DNA of 63,748 bases, filler included, from Licmophora abbreviata (GCA_900291995.1; 18 parts of 18 records of this genome joined end to end with filler, not necessarily neighbours in it), one strand, 5' to 3'; shown: positions 29 to 57,803, counted from the whole stretch's first letter. Numbers and translations: made by a program. The notes: generated from the letters alone by a model not told the origin.

Positions 29-129
29 GTATGTCCTTTCGTGTGTCACGCATCCGCCGTTGAGCGCCGTTGCGGCGCGACCCAATGGTTAGGACATCCC
101 GTTGCAACTGCCAAGACCGGAGACGCCAG

Positions 130-1514: not shown

Positions 1515-3468
1515 TCAACCGATCTCATTGGCGGCCAGACGGGAAATTGCGTCACCACTGATTTCTTTACGGCCTGAAGCCCATGTGGCGCGTGCTTTCA
1601 TAGCTACGCGTTCGAGAACCTCTTTTGGTGGACGTTTGGTGGCCGCAGGCCGCATTCCGTCTTCGTGGAAGAGATAGAGACGAGAAGCAAATGTTTCGAA
1701 AGGAAGTGACGCCTCTCCGAAACGCTCTCCGCAGCCGTGGGTTGAAACCAGAGCGCCGTCACCCCAGTCCTGACCCGAGTCATTGTTGGGATTGTAGAAA
1801 TAGACCCGCATCCTGCCGTCGCGATCAGGGGCAACGCGCAGGATCGTGATGGCATGCCAGCCAACGAAGCGACCGGCCGCATNNNNNNNNNNNNNNNNNN
1901 NNNNNNNNNNNNNNNNNNNNNNNNNNTTAATTAATTAANNNNNNNNNNNNNNNNNNNNNNNNNNNNNNNNNNNNNNNNNNNNCGGATCGTCGTTCCGGTC
2001 GGCGCAGAGCCGCCCCATCTCTGCATAAATTCGATCAAGATGCGGGACCATCACTACCGAAACGGGATCGGCGTCCAGAGGTGCGCCCAGGGCAAGCCCT
2101 GCAGGCAGATCGCCGGCATTGATCGCGCGTCCCTCGAAATGCATCATCACGGAGTCGATTCTTGCTGCCTGCGCAACAAGATGCAGCAGGTAGTCGGGAT
2201 CGTTTTGCGCCCACATGGCAATGGCGCGGGCAGATTGACAGGTCGGGTTAGCCCCTTGCCCCACGCCCAAAGGCTGGCCCAGCACCTGAATGCAGCCGGC
2301 TAGCAACAGGTCGGCGGGGGGCGCTGCGTGTAGTCCGGCCATGGACAGGCGCTCGGCGACAGGTTTGCATGGTTCCAGTTCCAGTTGCCGGCGAAAAGCC
2401 GGAGCGATCGGCGCATGATGAAGGATGCCACGATCGAGCATCAGCGACATGCCGTAGACTGCCTGTGCGGTGGCAGGCTGAACGGCCCTGCGGATCAGCT
2501 CGATGACAAGGCCGCGATGTTGCTGGAGACAGTCGCGACCCGTGGTGCCAAGGCCGAGCGTATCCGCGATCATGCCATCATGCTCGGTATCCAGCACCCA
2601 GCTCAGAAAGGCGGCATGATAATCCGAGACAAGACCAGTATCATGCATTGCCCGTGCAAGGCCTTGCGCCTCGTGACGCAGGTCCGTCTCGTCCATCACG
2701 GCAAGCCGCTCTAGGTAGATGCCCAAGCCCGGGTCGCCCATGCAAGCGGACGTCGGACCAAACAGCGCAGAAACAAGTCTGTCTGCACCAAGGCGCCGGT
2801 CACCGATCTCGCTACCGCGCTCGGACAATGTGATTGCGATCTGCGCGATCATATCTTTGGCATGAGCCACCTGGATGGGGCGTTGACGCAGGATACGCCA
2901 GATTTCATCGACCAATTCCCCCAACACATCCTGAAAGCCCACATGCTCAGCCAAATATTGGAAAAGCGCGTTGGTTGTCGCCTGTAGCGATCCTGCCGCG
3001 CGGTCCGCCTCAGCCGTCGTGCCGAAGAAACGCCGCATATTGAGCGCCAGCACTTGGGTCAGAAACCGTTGGGCGGCGGCGGCATGAATGTGGGGGTGCT
3101 CGAACTCGCCCTTCGCCACGGCGAGCAAGCGAAGCAGGCTTACGGCCTCGATGGCGACCGAGGACGGCGCTCCTTGCTCAAGTGTGCCGGCAANNNNNNN
3201 NNNNNNNNNNNNNNNNNNNNNNNNNNNNNNNNNNNNNTTAATTAATTAANNNNNNNNNNNNNNNNNNNNNNNNNNNNNNNNNNNNNNNNNNNNATTCGTG
3301 CAGAGTAGCAATCCCACCCGGGACAGCCATCAGGCGCCACACCACGTCGAGAACTTGAGCCTGAAACCGGGGCTTGGCAAAAGGCCGGGCCTGTTCAAGC
3401 CGTGCTAGCGGCCCATTGAGCGTGGCGACGAGGCGCGCGGCCTCGTCTCCATAAGTTTCTTCGCTCAT
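1515..3468 (-). CDS. large hypothetical protein with a C-terminal papain-like cysteine peptidase signature (split by gaps 1883-1982 and 3194-3293)
   Basis: Three consecutive minus-strand fragments; GQGANPTCQ (Cys codon 2238-2240), GWHAITILRV (His 1854-1856), YFYNPNNDSGQDWG (Asn 1791-1793). Confidence 0.7.
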
Positions 3469-3489
3469 GCGTGATACCCGCCAATCTGG

Positions 3490-4716
3490 TTATACATAGA
3501 AATCAAGTTCTTCCTGTTCCTTGAGCAGATCTCGCAGATGGTGCGGATCCGGCCCGAAGAAATACACTAGTCCCCAATGGGTACCGAAAGCGCTGCGTTT
3601 TGTCACTTTCTGCTCCATCGGTTCAGCCAATTCATGGAATTCGAAATACGGATTCTGTGCCGTCTCCGCCGGGATCTCCATCCGTTCGACGACTCGCCGA
3701 CGCGGATAGGCTCCGAAACATCCCGAGTGGCCCTTGGCATCTTTGACTGGCGTCGGAAAGAAAGCATCAAGCTCCTCGCGCGTGGTTTTGGGATCAAATG
3801 CCAGCACGATTCCTTGATAGCCGTTGAACCCATATGCTCGCTCGATCAATTCCAGCGCGTTGAAACCGGGCGGCCGATAGGCGACCTCGCCGAAATACAT
3901 TGTTCCGTCACTGGTCACGAAATATTCGGGGTGGATGAAACCGAAGTCGATATCAAACGCCTTGATCAGTTTGTTGATTTCTTCTTCGATCTTTGGCCGC
4001 CAGGATTCGAGCTCAGGGGTTGCTGGCACGAAGACCGAATAACCGAGCGTCACATACTCGGAAATGTTGAGAAACTGGATTTCACCGTCCTTGATCCAGG
4101 CCTCGACCGCAAACTCCCAGCCGTCCAGATGGCTTTCGAGCAGGGCTGGAAACTCGTCCTGCGAAATTGAATCGACATCTTCGACTGTGCGGATCGTACG
4201 GTGACCAAGGCATCCCGCCTTGTCGAAGGCCTTGAAATGAATTGGGTCGTCCGGATCGCCCTCGAGCTTGAGTAGTGTCTGGTTCACCCGCTTGAGAAAG
4301 CGCACCACATCCGCATGACTGTCGGCTTCCTCGAAAATACCCACGCGAATGCCCGCGAGCTGAGCACGGCGTTTCATCAAGGACTTGTCGCGAAACAGCA
4401 TGGATTGTCCGAGTAGGCGCGGATTGTCGAGCAGCACGGAGTTAATCGCGCCGGCCCATTCAACGGTCTCTTCGTAGAGAGGGATTGCCACGTCGCAGCC
4501 CTCGTCTTTGAGGATCTGCGCGATCTCATGGGATCGTTCGTTCAGCCGATCAAAATTCCAAGCGATAAAGGGAATGTCGTTGGCCTTGGCATACTCTTCG
4601 GCCCATGATGGCGCGACAATTACGTAACGGCGATCAAACCGGTCAATGGCGTCAATGGCGTTCAGCGACCAGCCGAGGATCGCTACATAGCCTTTGTCCA
4701 AATTTTTTTCAGTCAT
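3490..4716 (-). CDS. ATP-grasp carboxylate-amine ligase (L-amino-acid-ligase-like)
   Basis: FRDKSLMK, HFKAFDKAGCLG, LLESHLDGWEFAVE, HPEYF...FGEVAYRPPG ATP-grasp motifs; ATG at 4716 with upstream AAGG. Confidence 0.85.
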   Translation of the reverse strand: MTEKNLDKGYVAILGWSLNAIDAIDRFDRRYVIVAPSWAEEYAKANDIPFIAWNFDRLNERSHEIAQILKDEGCDVAIPLYEETVEWAGAINSVLLDNPRLLGQSMLFRDKSLMKRRAQLAGIRVGIFEEADSHADVVRFLKRVNQTLLKLEGDPDDPIHFKAFDKAGCLGHRTIRTVEDVDSISQDEFPALLESHLDGWEFAVEAWIKDGEIQFLNISEYVTLGYSVFVPATPELESWRPKIEEEINKLIKAFDIDFGFIHPEYFVTSDGTMYFGEVAYRPPGFNALELIERAYGFNGYQGIVLAFDPKTTREELDAFFPTPVKDAKGHSGCFGAYPRRRVVERMEIPAETAQNPYFEFHELAEPMEQKVTKRSAFGTHWGLVYFFGPDPHHLRDLLKEQEELDFYV

Positions 4717-5565
4717 GTTTGGCCTTTCGTCGGGTGTCGGGAAGGCGAGGGGCGCGCCAGCGCGCTTCTGTCTCTGCCGCCAAGCGATACTGGGGCGCAG
4801 TCTGCCCAGAGGTTGGGTGTGTTGGACGCATAAGAGCCGCGCCACTGTCCGAATATAATTAGTATAACTAAGTTAATTTGCAAGGCTTGCGGTTGTGACG
4901 GAGCCTGTTTGCTGTTTTTTGGTCTTTTGGAATAAGGATATTATCCCGGTAACGTGGTTGTTTGTAATTTCTTGAAGCTGTCAAAGGTCAAAAGATGGCG
5001 GATATTATTTAAATTAAGCTAAATATAAAATCAATCGTTTCGATGTCATCGAAGATTGGCTGTGCGCTGCCCATTGGGCAAGGTGAACCGCCAGTTACAT
5101 GCGCCTGCGCCAAACGTGTCGTGGGTCAGAGACTTTACTTATGTCGCGACATGGCAGGGGGTCGTCGGGGCCGTTTCCATAGACCTGAGCGTCGGCGTCA
5201 CTCTCTCTGGCCCCTTTTTGGCAAATCCGTAGGCGCCGGGAATGATTCGTCGCTTGGCAAACCGGCCCTTGAAGAAAGAAATTGTAGCGCGTTCAAGTAT
5301 AGTTCCGAAAAATTTGGGAGTTTGTTTCCCCGAAATGCACTCTAAGAGTGCGGGTAGGGATAAATAATCCCGTAAAAGGGCGTGACAGTCCTGCGTTTAC
5401 GCTTTGAATGGCGCTGATCCTTTAGTATCGGGCGAAAATGTGTCATAAAAAGGTCAATTGCGTGAGCGCCAATAAAAGCGCCAACAAGACTGATTTTATG
5501 AGCCAGGTTTCGAGCAGATTTTTTGGTTCATCTGAACCGAGCGAAGACAAAAAGGGATTTGAAAG

Positions 5566-6198
5566 ATGATTAGGAAGACATTTCTTGCAGCCATCATGTT
5601 TGCTTTGCCGGGATTGGCATCCGCAGCCACAGTCACCGAGATCAATGATTACGCGACTGCCCTCGGTCAGGTCGATCCGTCGGACTCGCTTGTCTTGCCG
5701 GGCACCTGGACTGCGGCGCCACTGACCATTAGCCCTGATGCAAGCGTGAGCGGGCAGTATCGTTCCCCCTATGAAACCGCCAGCACTGCTGTCCCGGGTA
5801 TCGAGGCAGCAGCGGGCTACTTCAGCGTTGGAGTAGGCTCAACCTACAGCACCAGCAGCAACCCAGCCATTTTGGCGCTCAACAGCCTCTCGAAATCTGT
5901 CAGTCTTTTGTGGGGCTCGCCAGACTCCTACAACACGCTGGACTTGTTGAAGGGTGGCTCTGTGGTCGCCACGATCTTGGGTGGCCAGTTCAACGTGACT
6001 GGTCTCGAGGCATCTTTCGTGACCATCACCGCCGATAACGCGGGTGAGTATTTCGATGGTATCCGGTTCACGTCGACGCAAAATGCCTTCGAGTTCTCCA
6101 ACGTGACCGTTGCGGCTGTGCCACTTCCTGCGGGTGGGCTTCTCCTGCTTGGCGGTCTCGGGGCGCTTGCCGGGCTTCGCCGCAAGACCAAGAAGTAA
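5566..6198 (+). CDS. VPLPA-CTERM sorting-domain surface protein
   Basis: Signal peptide (...LASAAT); C-terminus AVPLPAGGLLLLGGLGALAGLRRKTKK. Confidence 0.9.
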   Translation: MIRKTFLAAIMFALPGLASAATVTEINDYATALGQVDPSDSLVLPGTWTAAPLTISPDASVSGQYRSPYETASTAVPGIEAAAGYFSVGVGSTYSTSSNPAILALNSLSKSVSLLWGSPDSYNTLDLLKGGSVVATILGGQFNVTGLEASFVTITADNAGEYFDGIRFTSTQNAFEFSNVTVAAVPLPAGGLLLLGGLGALAGLRRKTKK

Positions 6199-6223
6199 CG
6201 CCAGCTTTGTAAACTATGGAAAT

Positions 6224-6252
6224 GGCCTCGGGAAACCGGGGCCTTTTCTTTT
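6224..6252 (+). terminator. Rho-independent terminator
   Basis: GGCCTCGG-GAAA-CCGGGGCC followed by TTTTCTTTT. Confidence 0.8.
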
Positions 6253-6380
6253 CGACCGTCACGCTCTTTGGTGAAGCTCCGCACCAAAACTCGAGCAACC
6301 CCTCGGGGCACTTTCGGTCAGGGGCAACCCGTGCGGCGCATCGGTTCAAGGATCGGGAGGCGTTGGCTGGGGTGGTAGGA

Positions 6381-6564
6381 GACCTTCGAAGCCGAAGATA
6401 ACCATCCGAAACCCCCGACGACGCTCCCGAGTGGGGCATTAAGCGGGGGCAAAAACAGAACGGAAGGGTCCCGCGGGTGACACGGCCGGGGAGAGCCGAG
6501 GCGGGTGTCTCACCCGATCCGAACGCTTTAAAGCAGAACGGTTGGGCGGAGGTGGCAGGCGGTT
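6381..6564 (-). repeat. copy 1 of a ~185-bp non-coding repeat (inverted relative to 9527-9711)
   Basis: Its reverse complement matches 9527-9711 except at three small patches. Confidence 0.95.
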
Positions 6565-6653
6565 CCGCTGGGTGGGTCGAGGGCGTGAGAATGATAACGG
6601 GGACAGCCTTGATCAGGCCATCCCCGCTTCTTCCAAATCTCGAGACTGTGTTG

Positions 6654-7337
6654 TTAAGCCTGCGCGGCCCCCTTTTGACGGCGCCGCAGCCACGCCAGTC
6701 CGCCGATACCGGTCAGGAGCAGCGGAAGCCCTGCGGGCAGGGGGATTGGGGCGGTTGTGTCAGTATCGGTGTTGAAGTTGTCAAAGGCGATGCCGATCAG
6801 CCTTGATCCACCCGAGGTCGTGCCTGTGATTTCAATTGATGAGATCAATCCAGACAAACCACTGAATCCGATCCGAGTAACCTGCCGATTGCCGGCGAGC
6901 GGATCATTGCCGTCGAAAAAGATGGACGCAAGTAAGTTGCTGCCCGCGTCAAATGCCTTGAATGTGAACTCTTCCAAATCGTTCCCGGACCCATCAATGT
7001 CCGCGACATCAAAAGAAGCTTCGGACACGGCAGTGACGTAATTGATACTCAGGCTCGTTGTAGTGCCAAAATCGGACGTCAGGAAATAATCGCCGAATGC
7101 ATCGCTGGGGTCCGGCGTGTCGTTAGGTACAAAACCATCCGCATTCCCGCCGACCTTGACAACATTGAGACCGTTTGCGCTGCTGAAAGTAATGCCCTCT
7201 GTCGGAAACGAGGCATTGTTCCCGAGCGATGTGACGTTTCCCGAGTAGCCGGTCTCGAAGTCAATGAAAGCTGCGTTGGCAGCACCGGCTGTAATGAACA
7301 CAGCTGTAGCTGCAATTGCTGACTTAAGTGTAAACAT
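6654..7337 (-). CDS. VPLPA-CTERM sorting-domain surface protein
   Basis: GGAGG RBS; signal peptide (...AANAAFIDFE); C-terminus APIPLPAGLPLLLTGIGGLAWLRRRQK. Confidence 0.9.
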   Translation of the reverse strand: MFTLKSAIAATAVFITAGAANAAFIDFETGYSGNVTSLGNNASFPTEGITFSSANGLNVVKVGGNADGFVPNDTPDPSDAFGDYFLTSDFGTTTSLSINYVTAVSEASFDVADIDGSGNDLEEFTFKAFDAGSNLLASIFFDGNDPLAGNRQVTRIGFSGLSGLISSIEITGTTSGGSRLIGIAFDNFNTDTDTTAPIPLPAGLPLLLTGIGGLAWLRRRQKGAAQA

Positions 7338-7557
7338 AAATAATAGCCTCCGAATTCAATATGGTCGGACGCTACCACAATTATCCGCGTTTGTTAAACG
7401 CTCGCTGAAAAAAGTTTGTTCCTGTTCGGGCAACAATGTGTCCAAAATATGGTCGCTGCTTTCTTCACCGGAGCATTTGCGCAAAACGATCACTCCGTTC
7501 ACCCGAAAACCGAGGAAACCTCCGCATCTATAACGATAGCAATCAAGGAGGTTTCTC

Positions 7558-7683
7558 ATGCTCATCAAAGTCTTGGCGTGGCTGTTCGCGCCCCCGAAGA
7601 AGACCCGCCGGAGTTCCGGCCTGACCGACCAGCTTCGGGGCTGGTTCGTGCTGGCTCTGCTGCTCCTGATCGGGGCGGCCTGA
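7558..7683 (+). CDS. 41-aa hydrophobic peptide (MLIKVLAWLFAPPKKTRRSSGLTDQLRGWFVLALLLLIGAA), below the ORF-track cutoff
   Basis: AAGGAGG RBS at 7545-7551, ATG 7558, TGA 7681-7683. Confidence 0.55.
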   Translation: MLIKVLAWLFAPPKKTRRSSGLTDQLRGWFVLALLLLIGAA

Positions 7684-7686
7684 CCC

Positions 7687-7753
7687 GTGCCCCGTCTCGA
7701 ACCCGACGCGGTGGTCGTCATCCGAGCCTTCGATGACGTCCCCGAACACCTGT
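7687..7753 (+). CDS. start of a small hypothetical protein (MPRLEPDAVVVIRAFDDVPEHL...), truncated by gap
   Basis: GTG 3 nt after the previous stop; open until the gap. Confidence 0.45.
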
Positions 7754-7853
7754 NNNNNNNNNNNNNNNNNNNNNNNNNNNNNNNNNNNNNNNNNNNNTTA
7801 ATTAATTAANNNNNNNNNNNNNNNNNNNNNNNNNNNNNNNNNNNNNNNNNNNN

Positions 7854-8718
7854 GGTCGGGCTGTTCTCGTCCAAGTACCGGGACCGGCGGGTGACGTCGC
7901 TCACGCGGGACGACGGACGCGAGTTCCTGGGTCTGATCGCGCGGCTGTCTCCGCTGATCGGGAAAGTCCCGGACACCCGGCGGATGGGGCTCGACCAACT
8001 CGTCCGCTGGTCCGATCGCGGCACCCGTCGCATCTCGGCGCGGACCCGCAAGCGCATCTGGTCGCAGGTAAACCACTTCCTGGATTGGGCGGTTTACGAG
8101 GGCCACCTTTACGCGAACCCGTTCCGGACCGTCCGCTTCGAGGGGAAGATCAAGCCCGCGCCCTACGCCGTGCCGACCGACGACGAGGTGCGCCAGCTGT
8201 TGGCGTCCCGGGACCCAATGCTCCACGACCCGCTCAAGGTCTGCCTGCTGACGGGGATGCGGTCCGGCGAGGCGCTCGGGTTGCTGCGGGAGGACCTGGT
8301 TCGTAAAGGCAATCTGGGCTGGTTCGTCTGGGTCCGCCCGAACGTCCTGCGGGAGCTCAAGACCGACGCCGCCGAACGGTTGGTGCCGCTTCACCCGGAC
8401 CTGGAGGCGCTCCTGGGTGACCTTCCGTCGGAGGGGCCGCTGTTTCCGGAGCTGTCGGTGAACGTCGTGACCAAGCGGTTCGCGGACCTGCGCAAGAAGC
8501 TGGGGCTGGAGCGTCCCGGTCTGGTGTTCCACTCGACCCGCAAGTGGTTCATCACCCAGTGCGAGCGCACCGGCGTTCCGGAGCACTTCACCGCGTCTCT
8601 GGTCGGGCACAAGTCCGCGCGGTCGGAGAACGGGATCACCTACGGCATCTACTCGGCGGGCATCTCCGACGAGCAGAAGCGCGGGATCGTCGACCAGATC
8701 CGGCTTCCGTCATGCTGA
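7854..8718 (+). CDS. tyrosine recombinase/integrase (5' end lost in gap)
   Basis: Catalytic set TGMRSGE (R), LKT (K), HSTRK (H-x-x-R), LVGH, TYGIY (Y). Confidence 0.92.
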
Positions 8719-8885
8719 TACCGGACATCGAGGCGTTCGAGGAGCGGGCCGCCATCGCCGAGTACGACGGCGGTCTGTCCCGGACGGCGGCGGAGGACCT
8801 CGCGGCGCGTCGGCAGGGCTTCACGGATCGGGAGCACTACTGGCGGTGGTTGGCGGAGTACGTGGTGGCGCGTAAGCTGCCCTGA
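8712..8885 (+). CDS. 57-aa helical hypothetical protein (EAFEERAAIAEYDGGLSR motif)
   Basis: ATG 8712 overlaps the integrase end; motif recognisable from mobile-element small proteins. Confidence 0.7.
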   Translation: MLIPDIEAFEERAAIAEYDGGLSRTAAEDLAARRQGFTDREHYWRWLAEYVVARKLP

Positions 8886-8892
8886 GAGAACG

Positions 8893-8929
8893 GCCCCGGC
8901 TGGCGATGGTTGGCCGGGGTTTCCTTTTG
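8893..8929 (+). terminator. probable terminator of the integrase operon
   Basis: GCCCCGGCTGGC-GATG-GTTGGCCGGGGT (with GU pairs) followed by TTCCTTTT. Confidence 0.55.
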
Positions 8930-9188
8930 AAAGGAGGTCGGAGATGGCGAAGACATTTGGAGTGTTCAGGAGCGTGGTGTTACTCTGCGGGCTCAGTAAA
9001 GTGCTGGTGTCCGAGAGATTAATATCGCGTGTCAACTTCTCATTCAAAAATATGGGGATCACCCAGCTGAGATATCGCGCTTCCTCTATCTAGCCGAAAT
9101 TTTCTTGACGTATGACCGAAATTTAAGTCTTTTTAACGCTATTAGACGTTCTGAATACGATTTTTGAATACTATTTTGGGAGTATGAA

Positions 9189-9467
9189 ATGCTTTCTAAA
9201 ACACTTTCCACTTTCGCCATAGTGTGTCTAATGTCGGGATGTGCTCCAATGATTTCGGGTACAATGAATGCGAGTACGACCCCAGAACTTGTACGAGCGG
9301 AGACTGCTAAACACTTCGGTGTCTCGACAAGCCGCGTTCGGATCAGCAATTACAACAAAGGCATGTTGGCGACACAGTACCAAGCTCGCGTCAGAGGTGT
9401 GCTGTATAATTGCCAATATTACTATGGCAACGTGGTTTGCAAACGCCCAGGGGAGGGGCAACTTTGA
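9189..9467 (+). CDS. small lipoprotein
   Basis: GGGAG RBS; lipobox LMSG-C; markedly low GC. Confidence 0.75.
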   Translation: MLSKTLSTFAIVCLMSGCAPMISGTMNASTTPELVRAETAKHFGVSTSRVRISNYNKGMLATQYQARVRGVLYNCQYYYGNVVCKRPGEGQL

Positions 9468-9526
9468 CGTTTCTGGGGTCTTATAGCCGTTTGGTTTCGA
9501 AGCGTTCATCCTGACATCAAGCGTTT

Positions 9527-9711
9527 AACCGCCTGCCACCTCCGCCGAACCGTTCTGCTTTAAAGCGCCCGATCCCCCGTGAGACACCCGCCTCGGCTCT
9601 CCCCGGCCGTGTCACCCGCAAGACCCTTCCGTTCTGTTTTTGCCCCCGCTTAATGCCCCACTCGGGAGCGTCGTCGGGGGTTTCGGATGGTTATCTTCGG
9701 CTTCGAAGGTC
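9527..9711 (+). repeat. copy 2 of the ~185-bp non-coding repeat (runs into a gap)
   Basis: Inverted match to 6381-6564. Confidence 0.95.
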
Positions 9712-9811
9712 NNNNNNNNNNNNNNNNNNNNNNNNNNNNNNNNNNNNNNNNNNNNTTAATTAATTAANNNNNNNNNNNNNNNNNNNNNNNNNNNNNNNNN
9801 NNNNNNNNNNN

Positions 9812-11173
9812 TGGGACGAGGTGTTCGAGGGAGGCAGCGGGAAGAGGCCCGGACCCAAGCCGAAGGCGAAACCGCGTGACATGCTCAAGGTCGTGCTGCT
9901 GGACCTCTACGTCGCCTGGACGGTCGATCCCGAGCTGTCGATCGGTGTCGATCTCAACCTGCGAAAGTGGGTGGCCGGGAGCCGGTACAACGCCCTTCAT
10001 CTTTCTCGGGCTGTTCCCGGTATCATCCACCGTCTGTCGGACGTGGGTTTGATCGACCTGTCCGTCGGCAGCTACGCGGGACCGGGTGCGAGCACCAACC
10101 GAACCGCCCGGATACGTGCCGCGGAGCCACTTCGAGCCAAGTTCAGGGAGGCTAGGTTCGGTCGGATGGACGTCGGTCATTCCGAGCGGGAGGAGTGTAT
10201 CATCCTTCGGGACCGCGACGGTAGCCCACTGGAATACGAGGACACCGAAGCCACCGTCGAGATGCGTCGTGAACTTCGAGCCTACAACGACCTGCTGCGA
10301 AGGACGTTCATCGACCTGCCGGGTGTCGAGGAGCCATTCATCGAACGGCGGATCAACGTCGGCGTGAGAGCGGGCGACGTGACCCGCGTTCCGATCTTCC
10401 CGGAGAACAAGTTCGTCCGCCGGGTCTTCTCGAGAGGAGACTGGAACCTCAACGGTAGGTTCTACGGCGGCTGGTGGCAGCAGATCGGGTCCGATCTCCG
10501 CAACACCATCCACATCAACGGCGCCCCCACGGTCGAGGTCGACTTCCGGGCGCTTCACGTGAACATTCTGAGCCTGGAGCAGGGTGTGAAGCTGGAGAAC
10601 GATCCCTACGACCTCCCCGAGAGCATTCTGGACGGCGTGGATCGTTTCGCCCAGCGCGGTTACCTCAAGACCCTCGTCCTCACCGCCATCAACGCCGCCG
10701 ATGAGCGGTCCGCGTATCAGGCCTTCCGGGACAACTACCCGGCGACGGACCCGGCGCGACGGTTTCGGAACGGCGACCTGAAGCGACTGCTGGATGCGTT
10801 CATCCGACAAACGCCGCAGTTGGCGGACGCCTTGTTTAACGATCAAGGTATCCGCCTGATGAACGTGGATGCCCGGATCGCGGAAGGTGTTCTGAGAGGG
10901 GCGACGGCACGAGACCTCCCGGTTCTTTGCGTTCACGACAGCTTCATCGTCGACTACCGAAAGACCAAGTTACTCAAGTTCCTAATGGCCTTGGCCTCGG
11001 GACAGGTGGTGGGCAGTGTTCTCCCGATCGCGAACGACTGGATGGGATGGGACGAGGTCGATGAGGAACGACGCGACGACTACGCCGAGGCTCGTCGGAT
11101 CAAGCCAACGCGAGGGTCCCTGGAGCGTCGGGCGGCTTTCGAGACTGTTTACGGACAGATCGCGCAGGGTTAG
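9812..11173 (+). CDS. hypothetical protein with PolA/T7-RNA-polymerase-superfamily palm motifs (5' end in gap)
   Basis: DWNLNGRFY, VEVDFRALH (motif A), RGYLKTLVLTAIN (motif B), VLCVHDSF (motif C) in the correct order. Confidence 0.7.
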   Translation, partial: WDEVFEGGSGKRPGPKPKAKPRDMLKVVLLDLYVAWTVDPELSIGVDLNLRKWVAGSRYNALHLSRAVPGIIHRLSDVGLIDLSVGSYAGPGASTNRTARIRAAEPLRAKFREARFGRMDVGHSEREECIILRDRDGSPLEYEDTEATVEMRRELRAYNDLLRRTFIDLPGVEEPFIERRINVGVRAGDVTRVPIFPENKFVRRVFSRGDWNLNGRFYGGWWQQIGSDLRNTIHINGAPTVEVDFRALHVNILSLEQGVKLENDPYDLPESILDGVDRFAQRGYLKTLVLTAINAADERSAYQAFRDNYPATDPARRFRNGDLKRLLDAFIRQTPQLADALFNDQGIRLMNVDARIAEGVLRGATARDLPVLCVHDSFIVDYRKTKLLKFLMALASGQVVGSVLPIANDWMGWDEVDEERRDDYAEARRIKPTRGSLERRAAFETVYGQIAQG

Positions 11174-12585
11174 CGTGGTAGGTTCCGGAGGAAGCGGTAG
11201 ATCTCCACCATGGCGCGGGTGTCGAGTTGGCAATACCGCAGCAGGCCCTGCGCAATTCGATCGGCTTCCGCAGGGTCCGCGGCAATCATCCGCTTCCAGG
11301 CGTCCATCGCCGCAGTCCCGTCCTGCACCTCGAGGCCTTGGTAGTTGAGCTCCGGGCACACCACGGGCAAGACCTTCTTGATCGAAGTCGACCCATCAAA
11401 CCTCGCGTCGACATACCCGGTTTTGAACGGGTCTTCCAAGTCGACCATGCGGTTGTTGATGTTGCGCAGGAAGGCTTGCTTTTCCGGGAACACTGCCGCC
11501 ATTGCTCTGTTTTGCGTACGCTCAAACGCTGCGTGCCAAGAAACGACGCTTCCCTCGGGGCCGATGTCTTGCTCAAGCTGCTCGATCAAGCGATCCGGCA
11601 GACGAGCTTCTCTCTCCAAGTATTCACGATGTCGCAACTGACCATCCTCGTCCAGAACGTGGAGGGAGTACTGGATCGGAAAGTGCTTATGCGGGCTCGC
11701 TCTGTCGATGATCGGAACCGCCGATGCGTAGGTCTCGTAGTCGAGGAAGTAGAGCGGGAATTCGAGATCGTCGAGGAACTGGTCGATTACACCAAGATCG
11801 ATCTGAGCTTCACCTGTGCGGAAAGCTTCCAGCACCGTTCTTTGTTGCGCCGTGAGATTTAGGTGTACGGGTACGTCCTCTAGCCGGAAGATACCCTGGT
11901 CCACCAAACCCTCGAGGCGCAGTCCGTAGAAACGTGGCAAGCTGTAGATTGATGGTCGCGGTATCTCGGGATTGAAGTGATCGAAGGCGTCGCAGTGCTT
12001 GCCGCGTGACTTGTAACGACAGGAGCAGCCGTCACGGTTGATATTTACGGCGAGCGAGGCGAGTGCCGCGTCGATCTCACGTTCCGTCTCCGCTTCGATT
12101 TCGGCAACGCGATCAGTGATGTCCTGGAAGACTAACAGTTCGACCGGATTGATGTGCCCGTCGCGGACGTAGGCACCGTCGAGGTGGACCAGGAATACCC
12201 GATCAATCGCCTGTCCGGCGCGCTCGGCGCATATCTTCTGGAAACAAGCGTCCTTGAGCTGGTAATGCGGCGCCTCCGTTTTTACTCGAGTCGAGGATTT
12301 GACCTCGTAAAGGGTTGCACCTCCATCGCCACCACCTTCTAGACCATCAACCCGGGCGAATAGTCCATCTTGTGTCTCGAAGACTTGCTCGAAACGCACG
12401 TTATCGTTCCCGCGCTCTTCGAAATATTGGCGAAAGTACCTTTCGACCTCACGCCCTTCATTGGCCAGCTTTTGCTGAAATGCCGAGAAATCACCCTCTG
12501 TGAAGTTCCCAGGATCACGCTTCGCGAGCCAGAACGATTTGTTACAGCTCAAGTATTGGATGAAGTCCGTCTTTGTAAGCGGCAT
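11170..12585 (-). CDS. DUF2779-type nuclease (N-terminal PD-(D/E)xK/Cas4-like plus C-terminal RNase H-fold exonuclease-like domain)
   Basis: ARVDGL...LYEVKSST...DACFQ; FLDYET...WHAAFE...DL...SIKKVLP...YCQLD. Confidence 0.8.
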   Translation of the reverse strand: MPLTKTDFIQYLSCNKSFWLAKRDPGNFTEGDFSAFQQKLANEGREVERYFRQYFEERGNDNVRFEQVFETQDGLFARVDGLEGGGDGGATLYEVKSSTRVKTEAPHYQLKDACFQKICAERAGQAIDRVFLVHLDGAYVRDGHINPVELLVFQDITDRVAEIEAETEREIDAALASLAVNINRDGCSCRYKSRGKHCDAFDHFNPEIPRPSIYSLPRFYGLRLEGLVDQGIFRLEDVPVHLNLTAQQRTVLEAFRTGEAQIDLGVIDQFLDDLEFPLYFLDYETYASAVPIIDRASPHKHFPIQYSLHVLDEDGQLRHREYLEREARLPDRLIEQLEQDIGPEGSVVSWHAAFERTQNRAMAAVFPEKQAFLRNINNRMVDLEDPFKTGYVDARFDGSTSIKKVLPVVCPELNYQGLEVQDGTAAMDAWKRMIAADPAEADRIAQGLLRYCQLDTRAMVEIYRFLRNLPR

Positions 12586-12693
12586 TATGTGATNNNNNNN
12601 NNNNNNNNNNNNNNNNNNNNNNNNNNNNNNNNNNNNNTTAATTAATTAANNNNNNNNNNNNNNNNNNNNNNNNNNNNNNNNNNNNNNNNNNNN

Positions 12694-13042
12694 AGGGATC
12701 GGGGCGGACATGCAGATCGAGCATGTCCTGTTCAACGATCGCGGTGCGGCTGCCCGACAGGAGCGAATAATGCACCCAGCCCCCCGCGCCGTCGCGGTCG
12801 CGCACGCGGCGCCAGTGGCCATGCTCGGCGGTGATCTCGAGCGGCACGTCGCGGCGCTTGAAGACCCAGTCGATCCGGTGGGTCAGGCTGGGACCACGGC
12901 GCACATTGCCTTCGCTCGCCTTCATCGACACGAAGCGCGGCAGGGGAAGATTCGTGACCGGGCCACGATCTTGTTGCTGCGCCTGGCCAGCAGATCCGAC
13001 CGACACCAACAGCGCGCACAGCACCACAAGCAGTGTTTTCAT
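12694..13042 (-). CDS. SH3-domain secreted protein (DUF1058-like), 3' end in gap
   Basis: Signal peptide; LPLPRFVSMK...NVRRGPSLTHRIDW...WRRVRDRDGAGGWVHYSLL. Confidence 0.85.
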
Positions 13043-13153
13043 TTCACGTGATCCGATTTCTGCCCGACGATCTGCATGGGGTTCTTGTGCCCCGTCCGTT
13101 CCTGCGCCAGTCTGGCAGTATTGCGCAGGCAAGAAAAGAAAAAGGAGGGGGAC

Positions 13154-14140
13154 ATGTCATCTGGACGCTTGAGTGTTGTCGTTACGCGACGCTTGCCCGA
13201 GACGGTCGAGAAACGGCTGAGCGAACTTTTCGACGTGTCGCTGCGGGAGGATGACACCCCGATGAGCCGCGCGGACCTGGTCGAGGCGGTGCGGACGGCG
13301 GATGTGATCGTGCCCACGCTGACTGACCGGATCGATGCCGCGTTGATCGCGCAGGCCGGAGATCAGCTTCGGCTGATCGCGAATTACGGCGCGGGGGTGG
13401 ACCATATCGACGTGCACACGGCGCGCCAGCACGGCATCCTCGTGTCCAATACGCCGGGTGTCTCAGCCGATGATACGGCGGATATGGCGATGGCGCTGAT
13501 CCTGGGGGTCACGCGGCGGATTCCCGAAGGGCTGGCGGTGATGCAGGCGGGGGGCTGGGACGGCTGGTCGCCCACCGCGCTTCTGGGCGGGCGTCTGGCG
13601 GGGCGGCGCCTTGGAATCCTTGGGCTTGGCCGGATCGGGCAGGCGGTGGCGCGGCGCGCGGCGGCGTTTGGCATGCAGATCCATTACCACAACCGGCGCC
13701 GGCTGCGCGAAGAGACCGAACAGGAATTGGGCGCGACCTATTGGGAAAGTCTGGATCAGATGGTGGCGCGGATGGATGTGCTGAGCCTCAACTGTCCGCA
13801 TACGCCCTCGACCTTTCATCTGATGAACGCGCGGCGGCTGAAGCTGATGAAGCCGGATGCGGTGATCGTCAATACCAGCCGCGGCGAGGTGATCGACGAG
13901 AACGCGTTGACGCGGATGTTGCGGGCGGGCGAGATCGCGGGGGCGGGCCTTGATGTCTATGAGAACGGTCCCGAGGTGAACCCGCGGCTGCGCGCGTTGC
14001 CGAATGTGGTGCTGCTGCCGCATATGGGATCGGCGACGGTGGAGGGGCGGGTCGAGATGGGCGAGAAGGTGATCCTGAACATCAAGACGTTTCAGGACGG
14101 CCACCGCCCGCCGGATCAGGTGGTTCCGGCGATGCTTTGA
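13154..14140 (+). CDS. 2-hydroxyacid dehydrogenase (D-glycerate dehydrogenase/glyoxylate reductase)
   Basis: GAGVDHID, NTPG, GILGLGRIG, NTSRG, LPHMGSAT. Confidence 0.9.
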   Translation: MSSGRLSVVVTRRLPETVEKRLSELFDVSLREDDTPMSRADLVEAVRTADVIVPTLTDRIDAALIAQAGDQLRLIANYGAGVDHIDVHTARQHGILVSNTPGVSADDTADMAMALILGVTRRIPEGLAVMQAGGWDGWSPTALLGGRLAGRRLGILGLGRIGQAVARRAAAFGMQIHYHNRRRLREETEQELGATYWESLDQMVARMDVLSLNCPHTPSTFHLMNARRLKLMKPDAVIVNTSRGEVIDENALTRMLRAGEIAGAGLDVYENGPEVNPRLRALPNVVLLPHMGSATVEGRVEMGEKVILNIKTFQDGHRPPDQVVPAML

Positions 14141-14201
14141 GGGCTGGGAGCCCACGCCGCATGCCGGGTTATGCCGCGCCATAGACGGCAAGGAGACAGG
14201 C

Positions 14202-15339
14202 ATGAGACTGCCGGCCATAGGATTGATCCTGTTCGTTTTTTCCGGAGCCGCGCTGGCGCAGCAGGCCGCGGATGCCGTGGCGCCCGAAGGGGAAGGCGCG
14301 GGGCGCGTCGCGGCAACGCCCGAGCTTGAGGCGGCGCAGGCGGCACGGGATGCCGGGCGCCCTGCGGAGGCNNNNNNNNNNNNNNNNNNNNNNNNNNNNN
14401 NNNNNNNNNNNNNNNTTAATTAATTAANNNNNNNNNNNNNNNNNNNNNNNNNNNNNNNNNNNNNNNNNNNNGGGCCGCCCTCGTCGGGGGGGGCTGACGG
14501 TGGGGCAGATCCTTGGCCTGCTGGAGCCCTTCGACCTGGCGGCGATGGGGCCGCAAAACGCGCAGGCCTGGCGGCTGATCGGGGATGCGAGCCGCCTCGC
14601 CTTTGCCGACCGAGGCCGCTACATGGCCGATGAGGATTTTGTCCCCGTTCCGGTCAAGGGTTTGATTGCAAAGGAATATATTGAGGAGCGCAGCCAGCTT
14701 TTGCAGGGCGATGACGCGCTGCCCGAGGTTGCGCCGGGACGGCCCGAGTTCGATCACAGCCTGAACCTGGCTGATGACATCTCGTTTGAGTTTCCGTCAA
14801 CCACGCATATTTCGATAACGGATCGTTACGGCAACGCACTGTCCATGACCTCGACCATCGAGAATGCGTTTGGGTCGCGAGTGATGGTGCGGGGGTTTTT
14901 GCTGAACAACGAGTTGACCGATTTTTCCTTTCGATCTCATGAAGAGGGCGTTCCGATCGCCAATCGGGTGGAGCCGGGAAAGCGCCCAAGATCGTCCATG
15001 GCGCCGACCATCGTGCTGAAAGACGGCGCGCCGGTGATGATCGTCGGCAGCCCCGGAGGTAGCCGGATCATCGGCTATGTGGTCAAGGCGATCATCGCGC
15101 ATCTGGACTGGAAAATGGATGTGCAACAAGCGGTTAGCATGCCCAACATGGTCAACAGGTTCGGCGTTTTCGATCTGGAGGCGGGCACATGGGCCGCCGA
15201 TCTTGCGCCGGATCTGGAGGCGTTGGGCTATGAGGTCAGGATCGCGCCGATGGTGTCGGGGCTGCATGCGATATCGCTTGGCGAGGGGTTGCGCGGCGGG
15301 GCCGATCCGCGCCGCGAAGGCATCGCCCTGGGCGACTGA
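14202..15339 (+). CDS. ggt: gamma-glutamyltransferase (split by gap 14372-14471)
   Basis: Signal peptide; STTHISI nucleophile Thr; LNNELTDF; GKRPRSSMAP; GSPGG; GGADPRREG. Confidence 0.9.
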
Positions 15340-15565
15340 AATTCTCCGAAAGGCCCGAAAAAGGGCTTCGGTATCACGTCGGTATTGCGTCGGTGCGATA
15401 TCGGTGCGAGCGCGGCACGAACTGCTGTAGGGCGCGCGACCCCCGGACAGGAGTGTCGGGAAATGCGAAGGCGTCGGTTTTGCGCGTTCTTGTGTCGGCT
15501 GGACCCACCTTGGCGCAGCAGGACTGCTAAACAGGGCGCAATCGTAAGCCAAGGAGTCGCTGCTC

Positions 15566-17081
15566 ATGAAGACCCACGTCAAAGCCCTTATCGTCGGTGG
15601 CGGCGCCATCGGCACGTCGATCGCCTATCATCTGGCCCGGTTCGGCTGGGACGATGTGGTGCTGCTGGAGCGCGACGAGCTGACCAGCGGATCGACATGG
15701 CACGCGGCGGGGCTTTTGCCGCTGTTCAACATGTCCTACGCGGTCACGCATATCCACGACTATTCGGTGAAGTTCTACAAGACGCTGGAAGAAGAGACCG
15801 GGCTGAATGCCGGGTTCTCGGTGGTGGGTAACCTGCGCATGGCGCAGACCGATGCGCGGATGGATGAATACCGGGTCTATGCCTCGACCGCCGAGACGGT
15901 GGGGGNNNNNNNNNNNNNNNNNNNNNNNNNNNNNNNNNNNNNNNNNNNNTTAATTAATTAANNNNNNNNNNNNNNNNNNNNNNNNNNNNNNNNNNNNNNN
16001 NNNNNGGATGCGCCCGAAAGCTTCGATCACGACGCGCGCAGCTTCCGCCGGGGGGGCTGGTGGTCCTATGCGGTGGAAGAGGCGAAGGCGGTGCGCGAGG
16101 GTGTGGGCCTGATCGATGCGTCGGCCTTTACCAAGCACACGGTGAAGGGACCGGGCGCCACGGCGTTTCTGGATTGGTTCACCTGCAACAAGCTGCCCAA
16201 GATCGGGCGGATCAACCTGACCTACGCGCTGACGCCGGCTGGCACGACGCGCACCGAATACACCATCGTGCGGCTTGCCGAGGACAGCTATTACCTTGTT
16301 TCGGCGGGCGCGCTGACGGATTATGACGGCGATTACCTGCGCAAATGCGCCGAGGACAAGGCGGCCGAGTTCGGTTACATCGCGATCGAGGATGTGACCA
16401 CGCAATGGGGTGTCTTTGCCATCGCCGGTCCGAAATCGCGCGATGTGCTGAAAGAGGTGGTCAAGGATGCCGAGCCGGACACGGTGCTGTCCAACAAGCG
16501 GTTCCCGTGGCTGAGCCAGCGCGACATCGAACTGGGCATGTGCCCGGTGCGCGCGATCCGCGTGGCCTATACCGGGGAGTTGGGCTGGGAGCTGCATCAT
16601 CCGATCGAGATGCAGAACTACCTGTTCGACCTGCTGGAAAAGGCCGGTGAAAAGCATGGGCTGAAGCTGGTGGGCGCACGGGCGCAGAACTGGCTGCGGC
16701 AGGAGAAATCCTATCGGGCCTTCGGCAACGAACTGGGCCGGGATGCCACCCCGCTCGAGGCTGACTTGCCGCGCTTCGTGGATCAGTCCAAGGCATTTCA
16801 GGGCAAGGACGCGATGAACGCGATCGGCGTGCGGTTCAAATGCGTGACCGTGTTGATCGACGGGCCGCAGGATGCCGACCCTTGGGGTGCCGAGGCGCTC
16901 TATGATGGCGATGAGCGTGTCGGGCGCCTGACTTCGGGGGGGTATTCGGTGGCGTTCGGCAAGTCGATCGGCATGGGCTATGTCAGCACTGACAAGGCCG
17001 AGGTGGGCCAGACGCTGCAGGTGCGTATCCTGGGCGAGCTGTGGCCCGCCGAGGTGGTGCAGGACAGCCCCTATGATCCGG
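15566..17081 (+). CDS. FAD-dependent oxidoreductase with GcvT domain (dimethylglycine dehydrogenase-like), gapped
   Basis: IVGGGAIG, LTSGSTWHAAG; C-terminal AYTGELGWE and LRQEKSY GcvT motifs. Confidence 0.85.
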
Positions 17082-57500: not shown

Positions 57501-57803
57501 CGCCGAACAGGGTGTCGATACCGGCACCGCCGAACAGCTGATCGTCNNNNNNNNNNNNNNNNNNNNNNNNNNNNNNNNNNNNNNNNNNNNTTAATTAATT
57601 AANNNNNNNNNNNNNNNNNNNNNNNNNNNNNNNNNNNNNNNNNNNNCATTGGCATCGGTTGTGGTTGTCGCAATGACCGTCCCGCCGGAATCCAGAAGCT
57701 GGATGGTTTGACCGGCGATGCCGCTGTCGAAGCCACCGATACCGTCGTTTTCGGTATTGTCGAGATTGCTGTCCGAGACGATGCGGCCGTTGATACTCGC
57801 CAT
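54565..57803 (-). CDS. RTX (Ca-binding nonapeptide repeat) protein with N-terminal SdrD-B-like domain and C-terminal Hint domain (gap 57547-57646)
   Basis: MASINGRIVSDSN...TTTTDAN; dozens of GGxGxDxLx repeats; VVCFTRGTLIAT...VSPQHRVL...YWHILFDRHQVIFSEGAPTES. Confidence 0.88.
57060..57546 (-). repeat. intragenic tandem repeat, 243-bp period (81 aa = 9 RTX nonapeptides), at least 2 copies
   Basis: Identical anchors at 57101 and 57344; the array runs into the gap. Confidence 0.9.

Follow-up and report, generated by a model that had tools for sequence, protein, structure and literature searches.

The TV-Pol family of minimal family-A polymerases was defined from Rhodobacterales and other bacteria by Iyer, Abhiman and Aravind in 2008, and the passages of that paper devoted to the family list members from Roseovarius, Sulfitobacter, Loktanella, Paracoccus and a 'Rhodobacterales bacterium' (PMC2579912). 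According to the same passages, a subset of these proteins has an N-terminal helical domain and is encoded beside lambda-type integrases, and such loci were proposed to be self-replicating mobile elements (PMC2579912). CCPol-MP of SCCmec, a TV-Pol member, is described in the relevant sections of later reports as a proven DNA primase-polymerase with a small OB-fold partner (PMC7581432, PMC10061031). Here we analysed a stretch of DNA of 63,748 nucleotides, filed under Licmophora abbreviata (GCA_900291995.1) and hereafter called the window, which holds a TV-Pol-like polymerase gene, a tyrosine integrase gene of a clade with an N-terminal DUF6538 domain, a gene for a 57-amino-acid protein that we refer to as EERAAI, the start of an open reading frame (ORF) of 65 amino acids, and inverted repeats that adjoin an attachment (att) core. 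This locus likely represents an integrative, cargo-carrying and probably self-replicating island of ~7.5 kb that has two invertible halves and sits in the 3' end of a tRNA-Gln(TTG) gene, and its host is a Rhodobacteraceae bacterium.

The original prediction, made from the sequence of this locus alone, had called it an undescribed mobile module. This was too strong, as integrase-borne TV-Pol elements had already been predicted in 2008, and the island shares with them, as characterised in the TV-Pol passages, a polymerase of 400-600 amino acids with a minimal family-A/T7 RNA polymerase-like core and no exonuclease, a hairpin arginine, two palm aspartates, an aspartate and an RxxxK motif in the fingers and, as in the subset, an N-terminal helical domain (PMC2579912). 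The same passages place TV-Pol genes in lambda-type integrase neighbourhoods within integration hotspots rich in restriction-modification genes, and predict a primase-polymerase role (PMC2579912). In these passages the 2008 account deals with gene neighbourhoods only and gives no att site, tRNA-Gln target, DUF6538 clade, EERAAI or 65-amino-acid genes, or inverted sites; its supplement may list some of the same loci (PMC2579912). With CCPol-MP the island shares a minimal family-A polymerase carried on a recombinase-borne chromosomal cassette, and the sections on CCPol report that both catalytic aspartates are required and that the enzyme primes and extends DNA (PMC7581432). As described there, however, CCPol sits in an operon with a helicase, whereas the island has no conserved adjacent MP-like gene or helicase; CCPol retains the ribonucleotide-excluding Glu and Phe, where the island enzyme has His and Leu; SCCmec uses serine recombinases instead of a tyrosine integrase; and the N-terminal domain of the island polymerases is absent from CCPol (PMC7581432). 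The original prediction had also drawn a parallel with pipolins, which holds at the level of function: in the passages describing them, these too are bimodular islands integrated at tRNA genes, which encode a tyrosine recombinase and a primer-independent polymerase of their own and have cargo rich in defence genes (PMC11551731, PMC7385651). It does not hold for the enzyme itself, which is of family B (piPolB) in pipolins and has a family-A fold here, and the pipolins described there are flanked by direct repeats, without an internal inverted att site (PMC11551731, PMC7385651). Tycheposons are likewise marine and target tRNA genes; according to the passages that present them, they have an inward-facing tyrosine recombinase and a small, optional replication module at opposite ends, carry their cargo in the middle and accrete in tandem into islands, as here (bioRxiv 10.1101/2020.12.28.424599). 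They were defined in Prochlorococcus, with a recombinase lineage of their own and primase/helicase hallmarks, and those passages mention neither a family-A polymerase nor inverted att sites; the likeness concerns the general plan only (bioRxiv 10.1101/2020.12.28.424599). In the literature searched, supplements being outside its scope, no described element of this architecture was found; this applies to the att anatomy, to the lineage combining tRNA-Gln, DUF6538 and EERAAI, to the alternating inverted sites with four isomers, and likewise to the replacement of the polymerase by a helicase in the same slot.

The features that make up the island are listed below in window coordinates; the arms on the two sides of the att core are called P and X, and related loci are numbered L001 onwards.

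6260-6363, minus strand: X' stretch of ~100 nucleotides, resembling the polymerase-side att arm and aligning with the post-core sequence of L001 and L002
6364-6380, minus strand: distal att core, 17 nucleotides identical to the 3' end of tRNA-Gln(TTG) (exact 17-mer match)
6381-6564, minus strand: P arm copy A, inverted, with YGCCCC at -58 and -71 from the core
7558-7683, plus strand: small hydrophobic ORF of 41 amino acids, without a family match
7687-7753, plus strand: first 22 codons of the conserved 65-amino-acid ORF that precedes the integrase, truncated at the contig end
7754-7853, no strand: artificial spacer, hiding ~630 bp with the rest of the 65-amino-acid ORF and the DUF6538 N-terminal domain of the integrase
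7854-8718, plus strand: tyrosine integrase, C-terminal 287 of ~430 amino acids (PF00589, E 1.3e-08; phrog_1, E 4.6e-38)
8712-8885, plus strand: EERAAI protein of 57 amino acids, beginning MLIPDIEAFEERAAI, its ATG overlapping the integrase stop in ATGCTGA
9527-9711, plus strand: P arm copy B, the contig stopping exactly at the P/core boundary
9712-9811, no strand: artificial spacer, presumed to hide the internal core and X arm
9812-11173, plus strand: TV-Pol-like minimal family-A polymerase with an N-terminal winged helix, 453 of ~480-510 amino acids
12594-12693, no strand: artificial spacer, expected from synteny to hide an inverted X arm, the core, the tRNA-Gln gene and the 3' end of an SH3-like gene

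ORF and family matches placed the genes where the original prediction had put them. Of the two small ORFs that it listed, the one at 7558 is present and conserved only in L002 (58% identity), and the one at 7687 is the start of a separate 65-amino-acid gene and not part of the integrase.

The 63.7-kb window consists of 18 contigs (1.1-14.3 kb) and 17 identical artificial spacers of 100 nucleotides, of the form N...TTAATTAATTAA...N, and since the island is spread over three of these contigs (3294-7753, 7854-9711 and 9812-12593), the adjacency of its pieces needed proof. Linkage was judged from relatives, for which one genome per species was scanned with the polymerase, yielding 45 loci. In seven of these (L001, L002, L003, L005, L006, L009 and L010), integrase and EERAAI genes lie within 10 kb of the polymerase gene, the integrases being 67-91% identical to that of the window and directly followed by an EERAAI homologue. 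Further linked loci are L047, on a 4.4-Mb contig, and the metagenome contig L060, the sequence of which recurs in a second assembly as L063. L060 is the closest relative (polymerase 75%, integrase 87% and EERAAI 80% identity); its gene order and orientation are exactly those of the window, and its polymerase segment ends at a tRNA-Gln gene. The first gap only was bridged, using Logan contigs from four public runs (X1, X2, X3 and X5) aligned to the homologous stretch of L002. All four runs contain the polymerase contig of the window word for word and may be its source samples, and each has one unbroken contig that leads from upstream of the 41-amino-acid ORF through the 65-amino-acid ORF and the whole integrase to EERAAI, and the loose ends of these contigs equal the window on either side of the 7754-7853 spacer. 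In run X1, this contig (record 3) continues past EERAAI to the P arm and core. The length hidden by this spacer was estimated from the distance between the two flanking matches in L001.

Around the second gap, L060 has the order EERAAI, P-core-X, polymerase, and core plus X arm, into which ~30 polymerase codons fall, span ~350-470 nucleotides in L001 and L060. The polymerase contig of the window aligns from its first residue at position 10001 of L001, the end of a perfect inverted repeat of 351 nucleotides, and its other end lies 8 nucleotides upstream of the DUF2779 start, where the other repeat arm begins in L001. The ends of contig 9812-12593 thus match the inner repeat boundaries of L001 to within ~1 nucleotide, and this contig is therefore exactly the unique DNA between two collapsed repeat arms. 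The contigs after 12593 carry an SH3-like gene and genes for glycerate dehydrogenase and gamma-glutamyltransferase (12694-15905), and the order in L001 is gamma-glutamyltransferase, glycerate dehydrogenase, SH3-like gene, tRNA-Gln, element, with the same flank in L014. By these comparisons the three island contigs belong together, and the linkage that the original prediction had regarded as provisional was borne out by the synteny of relatives, by contig ends at repeat boundaries and, for the first gap, by bridging contigs. The island reaches left to at least 6364 and right past 12593, to a tRNA-Gln gene outside the window; ARAGORN did not find a tRNA-Gln gene in the window, and the sole tRNA gene that was found there is a tRNA-Leu(GAG) at 697-783.

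The conserved 185-bp repeat reported in the original prediction exists, but its two copies, at 6381-6564 and 9527-9711, are inverted relative to each other and are not free-standing elements: they are arms of an att site with a tRNA-derived core. The copies are 94.6% identical over 186 aligned nucleotides, with an ungapped stretch of 133 nucleotides at 98%, and alignment of both with relatives shows that the repeat ends at the 17-nucleotide core TCCTACCACCCCAGCCA. In L001, L003, L009 and others, tRNA-Gln(TTG) has this core as its 3' end; the repeat is the P arm on one side of the core, and the arm on the other side, X, continues into the polymerase gene. A full site comprises a P arm with YGCCCC at -70 and -58, the core, and an X arm with YGCCCC at +54 and +66. 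In a survey of 40 core sites from 22 sources, YGCCCC at -58, mostly with a second copy at -70/-71, was present in 17 of 21 non-tRNA core sites and in none of 19 tRNA-proximal ones, and the pair at +53..55 and +65..67 in 24 of the 40 sites, the background frequency of the motif being 1.1 per kb on each strand. The arm sequences diverge across the 40 sites while the spacing of YGCCCC stays fixed, a pattern expected of the arm-type binding sites of a lambda-like integrase, for which the N-terminal DUF6538 domain would be the obvious candidate reader. A search of 3294-12593 against Rfam gave only a sub-threshold NsiR1-like match, so that the repeat is not a known RNA. This match, at 8866-8928 (25.5 bits, gathering score 39, E 0.12), was taken as chance; it lies directly 3' of the EERAAI stop and is most likely a terminator-like hairpin.

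Elements of the relatives are bounded by cores that correspond to the 3' end of the tRNA gene and leave the tRNA intact, as expected of a tRNA island; the window itself has the distal core only. The X' stretch beyond this core has YGCCCC at +38/+54. In relatives the X-like remnant after the distal core varies from 0 to ~440 nucleotides in length, and the +54/+66 motif is missing at the element-free tRNA-Gln sites L057 and L058, which may be empty sites. We therefore rejected X' as native attB flank, and it is probably the scar of an older element at the same tRNA.

Instead of two direct copies of the core, L001 has three, and its element runs in the order tRNA-Gln with the core, X arm, polymerase, DUF2779, an inverted X-core-P site, and then a hypothetical gene, the 65-amino-acid ORF, integrase, EERAAI, small ORFs, and P arm with core. 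Because the three cores alternate, each segment is bounded by its own inverted repeat: 351 nucleotides of core plus X around the polymerase segment, and 296 nucleotides of core plus P around the integrase segment, both with 100% identity. Strict alternation was found in 9 of 12 distinct loci with at least two cores (L001, L003, L006, L009, L010, L014, L047, L059 and L060). In general, the inverted repeat on the polymerase side (IR1) measures 351-514 nucleotides, with 92-100% identity, and that on the integrase side (IR2) 130-375 nucleotides, with 85-100% identity; an inverted repeat surrounds the polymerase gene in 9 of the 45 loci. IR1 includes the 5' end of the polymerase gene in L001, L009, L014, L047, L060 and the window, and the 3' end in L003, L005 and L006, which is what repeated homogenisation with shifting boundaries would give. 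The small polymerase contigs L011, L013 and L070-L072 have inverted ends, which breaks made by assemblers at these repeats would explain.

The alternating inverted att sites imply two invertible segments, a step beyond the original prediction. Isomers were defined by the orientation of polymerase and integrase, in this order, relative to the tRNA, and were counted without L002, where the tRNA is off the contig, and without L050-L052, which duplicate L003, L006 and L005. All four orientation isomers are present among the relatives, in different genomes: (+,+) in L001; (+,-) in L003 and L010; (-,-) in L005, L006, L009 and L060, and by inference in the window; and (-,+) in L047. Exactly these four forms would arise if a circle that carries two complete P-core-X sites in inverted orientation, and that exists in two isomeric states, integrated via either site.

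Three further observations concern this architecture. In L059 (600-3900), the slot flanked by inverted repeats beside tRNA-Gln holds a 465-amino-acid DUF5906 protein (D5/SF3-type helicase) and an HNH endonuclease, thus a helicase-type gene in the place of the polymerase, and the HNH gene lies within the repeat with its C-terminal part. In L001, DUF2779 is preceded by the polymerase gene's upstream region and first 30 codons, brought there by the second X-arm copy (12759-12954 and 9911-10003), and this 30-codon leader stops five codons later, overlapping the DUF2779 ATG; the sequence suggests that a duplicated polymerase promoter drives the cargo at the distal segment end. Finally, L049 and L053 have an integrase (52-53%) and EERAAI (58-68%) next to a remote polymerase homologue (22-24%); they lack the tRNA-Gln core and appear to be a sister lineage with another target site.

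The polymerase ORF matched no Pfam or NCBIfam family, and sequence and profile searches against PDB sequences gave nothing meaningful; it matches phrog_4756, of unknown function (E 8.5e-42), and fold comparison alone was informative. The AlphaFold 2 (AF2) model had a predicted local distance difference test (pLDDT) score of 94.3 and a predicted TM-score (pTM) of 0.92. Residues ~120-430 compared best with apicoplast PolA (Z 13.0, 255 residues, root-mean-square deviation 4.2), and other DNA polymerases scored Z 12.4 (Aquifex Pol I), 11.4 (polymerase nu), 11.2 (Klenow) and 10.4 (T7 DNA polymerase). The corresponding values for RNA polymerases were 11.0 (yeast mitochondrial), 9.5 (T7) and 7.2-7.3 (phage N4). 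Foldseek gave a probability of 1.0 to PolA entries, with DNA polymerases as its top matches throughout; no family-B polymerase was among the fold matches listed, and the closest cluster in the Atlas bears the automatic name 'DNA-directed DNA polymerase family A palm domain-containing protein'. Residues 1-117 are modelled as a MarR-like winged helix (Z 8.0), and the exonuclease part is absent from the 453 amino acids in the window.

In an alignment of 91 members, F206, G215, W222, R230, E242, D244 and K286 are invariant, R216, D264, R282 and H375-D376-S377 are kept in at least 90%, and H249, L290 and N294 are nearly invariant. These positions coincide with the features by which TV-Pol was defined: hairpin 202-219 carries R216 and is followed by the invariant R230, the palm has its aspartate pair in D244 (strand 238-245) and D376 (hairpin 372-381), and the fingers have D264 and the RxxxK motif of R282 and K286, with K286 in helix 278-294. 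We take D244 and D376 to be equivalent to Klenow D705 and D882, by motif and not by superposition. The modelled core is family-A/T7 RNA polymerase-like and lacks exonuclease domains, and the protein fits the TV-Pol family. The family comprises 5615 representative clusters (E <= 0.001); the Ma-LMM01 record, searched with the family profile, gave no match, and no Sputnik protein was among the 50 BFVD structural matches listed.

Two metagenome contigs with TV-Pol genes have identical terminal direct repeats of 123-127 nucleotides and are probably circular. L104 (6492 nucleotides, identical ends of 123 nucleotides) carries TV-Pol, a tyrosine integrase and a Sel1-repeat protein, and L085 (6782 nucleotides) is a plasmid with Rep_3 and a resolvase that carries TV-Pol, a Sel1-repeat protein and YbjQ. 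Distant family members (25-33% identity) occur in tRNA-integrase islands at Leu, Cys, Thr, Ala, Phe and Tyr tRNAs (eight loci). These islands, the two contigs and the helicase swap in L059 favour a role in replication.

The association between integrase-linked EERAAI and the polymerase, a check proposed in the original prediction, held up: among 401 Rhodobacteraceae genomes, 28 have EERAAI, 43 the polymerase (E <= 1e-20) and 15 both (odds ratio 14.2, p 3.4e-9), with the two genes at most 10 kb apart on one contig in 10 genomes. The pairing is strong and frequent, not obligate. The polymerase family was also found in another alphaproteobacterial order, with 24 of 251 genomes positive, in 55 phage records (23-29% identity), most of them from Vibrio and Aeromonas phages of 90-140 kb, and in five plasmid records, four of them replicons of 1.5-2.2 Mb and one a 128-kb plasmid. 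With only five plasmid records, a common plasmid replicase was rejected as a description of the family. The genome of L021 has eight matches to the polymerase profile and three to EERAAI on several contigs, and some hosts thus appear to carry many copies or relatives of these elements.

We infer from these data the following cycle. The integrated element has three alternating cores, in the order tRNA-core-X, segment 1, inverted X-core-P, segment 2 and P-core, where segment 1 may serve as replication module (TV-Pol-type enzyme plus cargo, here DUF2779) and segment 2 as recombination module (small ORF, 65-amino-acid ORF, DUF6538 integrase, presumably translationally coupled EERAAI, and cargo). 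The integrase, probably aided by the small proteins, would recombine the two direct outer cores, and the excised circle would then hold two inverted complete att sites. TV-Pol may prime and copy this circle, using its winged helix to locate a site in the X arm, and either half could flip, through the integrase at the cores or through host recombination in the arms, which would lead to four integrated isomers. The circle would re-integrate through either site, with the cargo carried along, and at some stage would pass from cell to cell. In outline, this accords with the original prediction of a small integrase-borne element with a PolA/RNA polymerase-like enzyme, a cis-acting repeat and variable cargo.

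Segments of this kind have precedents elsewhere. In the yeast 2-micron plasmid, the target of a tyrosine recombinase lies inside a pair of long inverted repeats that split the circle into two unique halves, and class-E genomes such as that of herpes simplex have two segments, each flanked by inverted repeats, a shared terminal 'a' sequence and four isomers. Both are eukaryotic or viral and not tRNA-integrative, whereas the island isomers are known from different genomes only. By analogy, the excised element could be a bacterial counterpart of the 2-micron plasmid, in which the recombinase flips one half while forks primed by TV-Pol are under way and so amplifies copies; one initiation would then yield many copies, and integration via either site would explain the four isomers. 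We consider this extension rather improbable, and the link between inversion and copy-number amplification in the island is a guess.

Several observations weigh against an integrative, self-replicating island with invertible halves. Three of the 12 multi-core loci do not alternate (L005, L048 and L054), L048 having direct repeats only, and L014 has a polymerase segment flanked by inverted repeats with no integrase match within 10 kb. Within a strain, no circle, empty site or alternative isomer was seen, and the contigs of the runs break at the core. In the window, the tRNA-Gln gene and both X arms are missing, and the right half of the map is drawn from synteny. Thirteen of the 28 EERAAI-positive genomes are without the polymerase (E <= 1e-20), and 28 polymerase-positive genomes are without EERAAI. 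In the window proteins and relatives' ORFs that were scanned, no genes for transfer by conjugation or packaging were found. As to the enzyme, a His stands at +5 from D244, and Leu and Asn at +4 and +8 from K286, positions that we assume to be those of the Glu, Phe and Tyr by which family-A DNA polymerases reject ribonucleotides, and motif C has an HDS ending, presumably like T7 RNA polymerase. Given these replacements and this ending, DNA synthesis by the polymerase-like protein is not assured. Lastly, the L085 plasmid has a Rep_3 initiator of its own besides TV-Pol, so that TV-Pol may be an accessory primase rather than the replicator.

Among the alternatives, a real island in which the alternating inverted sites have no role, and are scars of integrations, deletions and RecA-driven inversions at a tRNA hotspot, survives best; it is possible, though clearly less probable than an element built on these sites. 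That tRNA-Gln is an accretion site is indicated by the X-like remnants of 0 to ~440 nucleotides after the distal core in the window, L006, L047 and L060, and scars would also accommodate the irregular L005, L048 and L054. Moreover, inverted repeats of 350-500 nucleotides would recombine by host functions anyway, and a flip between identical arms alters no junction sequence, with no regulatory switch evident. Yet the three-site plan recurs in 9 of the 12 multi-core loci despite polymerases that are only 44-75% identical to that of the window, the arms are homogenised within an element (92-100%) and divergent between elements, the internal site retains both pairs of arm motifs at exact distances, and the plan survives the swap of the polymerase for a helicase-type gene in L059.

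Less probable still is a phage satellite or defective prophage that a helper phage induces, replicates and packages, with a polymerase-like gene of phage origin. The polymerase does belong to a PHROG, phrog_4756, occurs in the 55 phage records and has full-length structural matches in BFVD with TM-scores of up to 0.69; the size and the integrase-replication-cargo plan resemble PICI-like elements and tycheposons, as far as the passages on the latter go (bioRxiv 2020.12.28.424599), and L005 has defence-like cargo (type ISP restriction-modification and HEPN). Phage satellites of the PICI-like type, however, have packaging or capsid-redirecting genes, and no such genes, nor any capsid, terminase, portal or packaging family, were found in the nine window proteins or in the 40 ORFs scanned in elements of relatives; many ORFs match no family at all and may include a novel packaging gene. 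In addition, a pattern scan of IMG/VR viral contigs with the polymerase found no relative, and the phage homologues are only 23-29% identical. For the nine window proteins scanned, this agrees with the original prediction, which had seen no capsid, terminase, relaxase or transposase; none of these families was matched.

It is equally doubtful that the polymerase-like protein is a promoter-specific RNA polymerase or RNA primase, with its winged helix on the X arm, or has another role such as defence. The HDS motif C and the loss of the Glu/Phe/Tyr positions used by family-A DNA polymerases would suit an RNA polymerase, as would the modelled N-terminal DNA-binding domain and the closeness of the RNA polymerase fold scores to those of DNA polymerases. 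The X arm also bears the upstream region of the polymerase gene at both ends of segment 1, and its second copy in L001 reads into DUF2779. The best fold matches are DNA polymerases nonetheless, both by Z score (13.0, 12.4, 11.4 and 11.2) and by Foldseek, and the in-situ replacement by a D5-type helicase points to replication. The only characterised TV-Pol member makes DNA, according to the sections that describe it (PMC7581432). An assembly artefact, in which the contigs stem from loci or organisms that have nothing to do with one another and adjoin only in the file, as a chain of 18 short contigs with artificial spacers would permit, is contradicted by the synteny with L001, L002, L060 and others, the bridging contigs from other assemblies, the contig ends at predicted repeat boundaries and the presence on the following contigs of the genes that flank tRNA-Gln in L001 and L014, and is extremely unlikely.

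An island family of this type would offer a compact, well-delimited and widespread TV-Pol model in marine bacteria that are not pathogens; within the literature searched, the SCCmec enzyme is the only TV-Pol studied at the bench. With defined att sites, arm motifs and a replication slot, it could be tested how a minimal family-A polymerase starts replication, and the inverted att sites raise the question whether recombinase-driven inversion occurs in bacterial integrative elements as it does in the 2-micron plasmid. The elements would also move surface-protein, defence and metabolic genes between Roseobacter-group genomes.

Full-length relatives of the integrase have ~430 amino acids and consist of DUF6538 and PF00589 (Phage_integrase). 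In 30 homologues, R277, K310, H367, R370, H393 and Y404/Y407 are invariant, which we take to fill the catalytic R-K-H-R-H/W-Y roles, and the fragment in the window retains GMRSGE, HSTRK, GHKS and TYGIY. The clade comprises 1375 clusters at E <= 1e-20, with Roseobacter-group names where named. The 65-amino-acid ORF was detected upstream of the integrase by tblastn in L001, L002, L003, L005, L010, L047, L048, L059 and L060, and complete ORFs of 65-66 amino acids are present in L005, L009 and L010. EERAAI homologues form at least 250 clusters, all unnamed, share 19 invariant positions and always lie directly after the integrase in relatives. The model of EERAAI has three helices (pLDDT 91.8); no fold match was found, the best Z being 4.4, and searches gave no Pfam, NCBIfam or PADLOC-type clue and one weak PHROG match (E 0.0017). 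Among 90 candidates there were no longer fused forms, and every neighbour in the Atlas is labelled 'hypothetical'. The constant position of EERAAI behind the integrase and the overlapping stop and start suggest, as a guess, an accessory or directionality factor.

The remaining genes of the island and its left flank are cargo or candidate cargo:

5566-6198, plus strand: second VPLPA-CTERM protein (family match)
6654-7337, minus strand: VPLPA-CTERM surface protein of 227 amino acids, cargo (TIGR03370, E 1.6e-09; GC 0.544)
9189-9467, plus strand: lipoprotein-like ORF of 92 amino acids, cargo (GC 0.487), without a match in relatives or a family
11170-12585, minus strand: DUF2779 protein of 471 amino acids, semi-conserved cargo (PF11074, E 6.2e-35)

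The contrast between GC-rich core genes and compositionally distinct cargo, on which the original prediction had built, was confirmed, with a GC content of 0.62-0.70 for the core genes versus 0.46-0.58 for cargo. The individual values are 0.674 for the integrase, 0.695 for EERAAI, 0.624 for the polymerase and 0.638 for the P arm, versus 0.487 for the lipoprotein, 0.544 for the VPLPA-CTERM protein, 0.564 for DUF2779 and 0.459 for 8886-9188. Cargo differs in every element, and the VPLPA-CTERM protein at 6654-7337 is absent from the elements of relatives. DUF2779 is present in 2 of the 45 genome loci (L001 and L003) and in none of 80 metagenome loci, and was rejected as a core partner of the polymerase. 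The relatives carry, besides DUF2779, type ISP restriction-modification, HEPN, TerB, arginase and HupE, as well as sulfatase, nitroreductase, flavodoxin-like proteins and an IS630-type transposase. Left of the distal att core, 3490-6198 encodes an ATP-grasp-like ORF of 451 amino acids and a VPLPA-CTERM/Npun_F0296-domain protein (GC 0.55-0.58), which may be cargo that an earlier occupant of this tRNA left behind. Elsewhere in the window, 55200-57540 contains dense direct repeats with a period of 27 nucleotides (units of 243 nucleotides, up to 84% identity), which resemble a long repeat-rich coding region.

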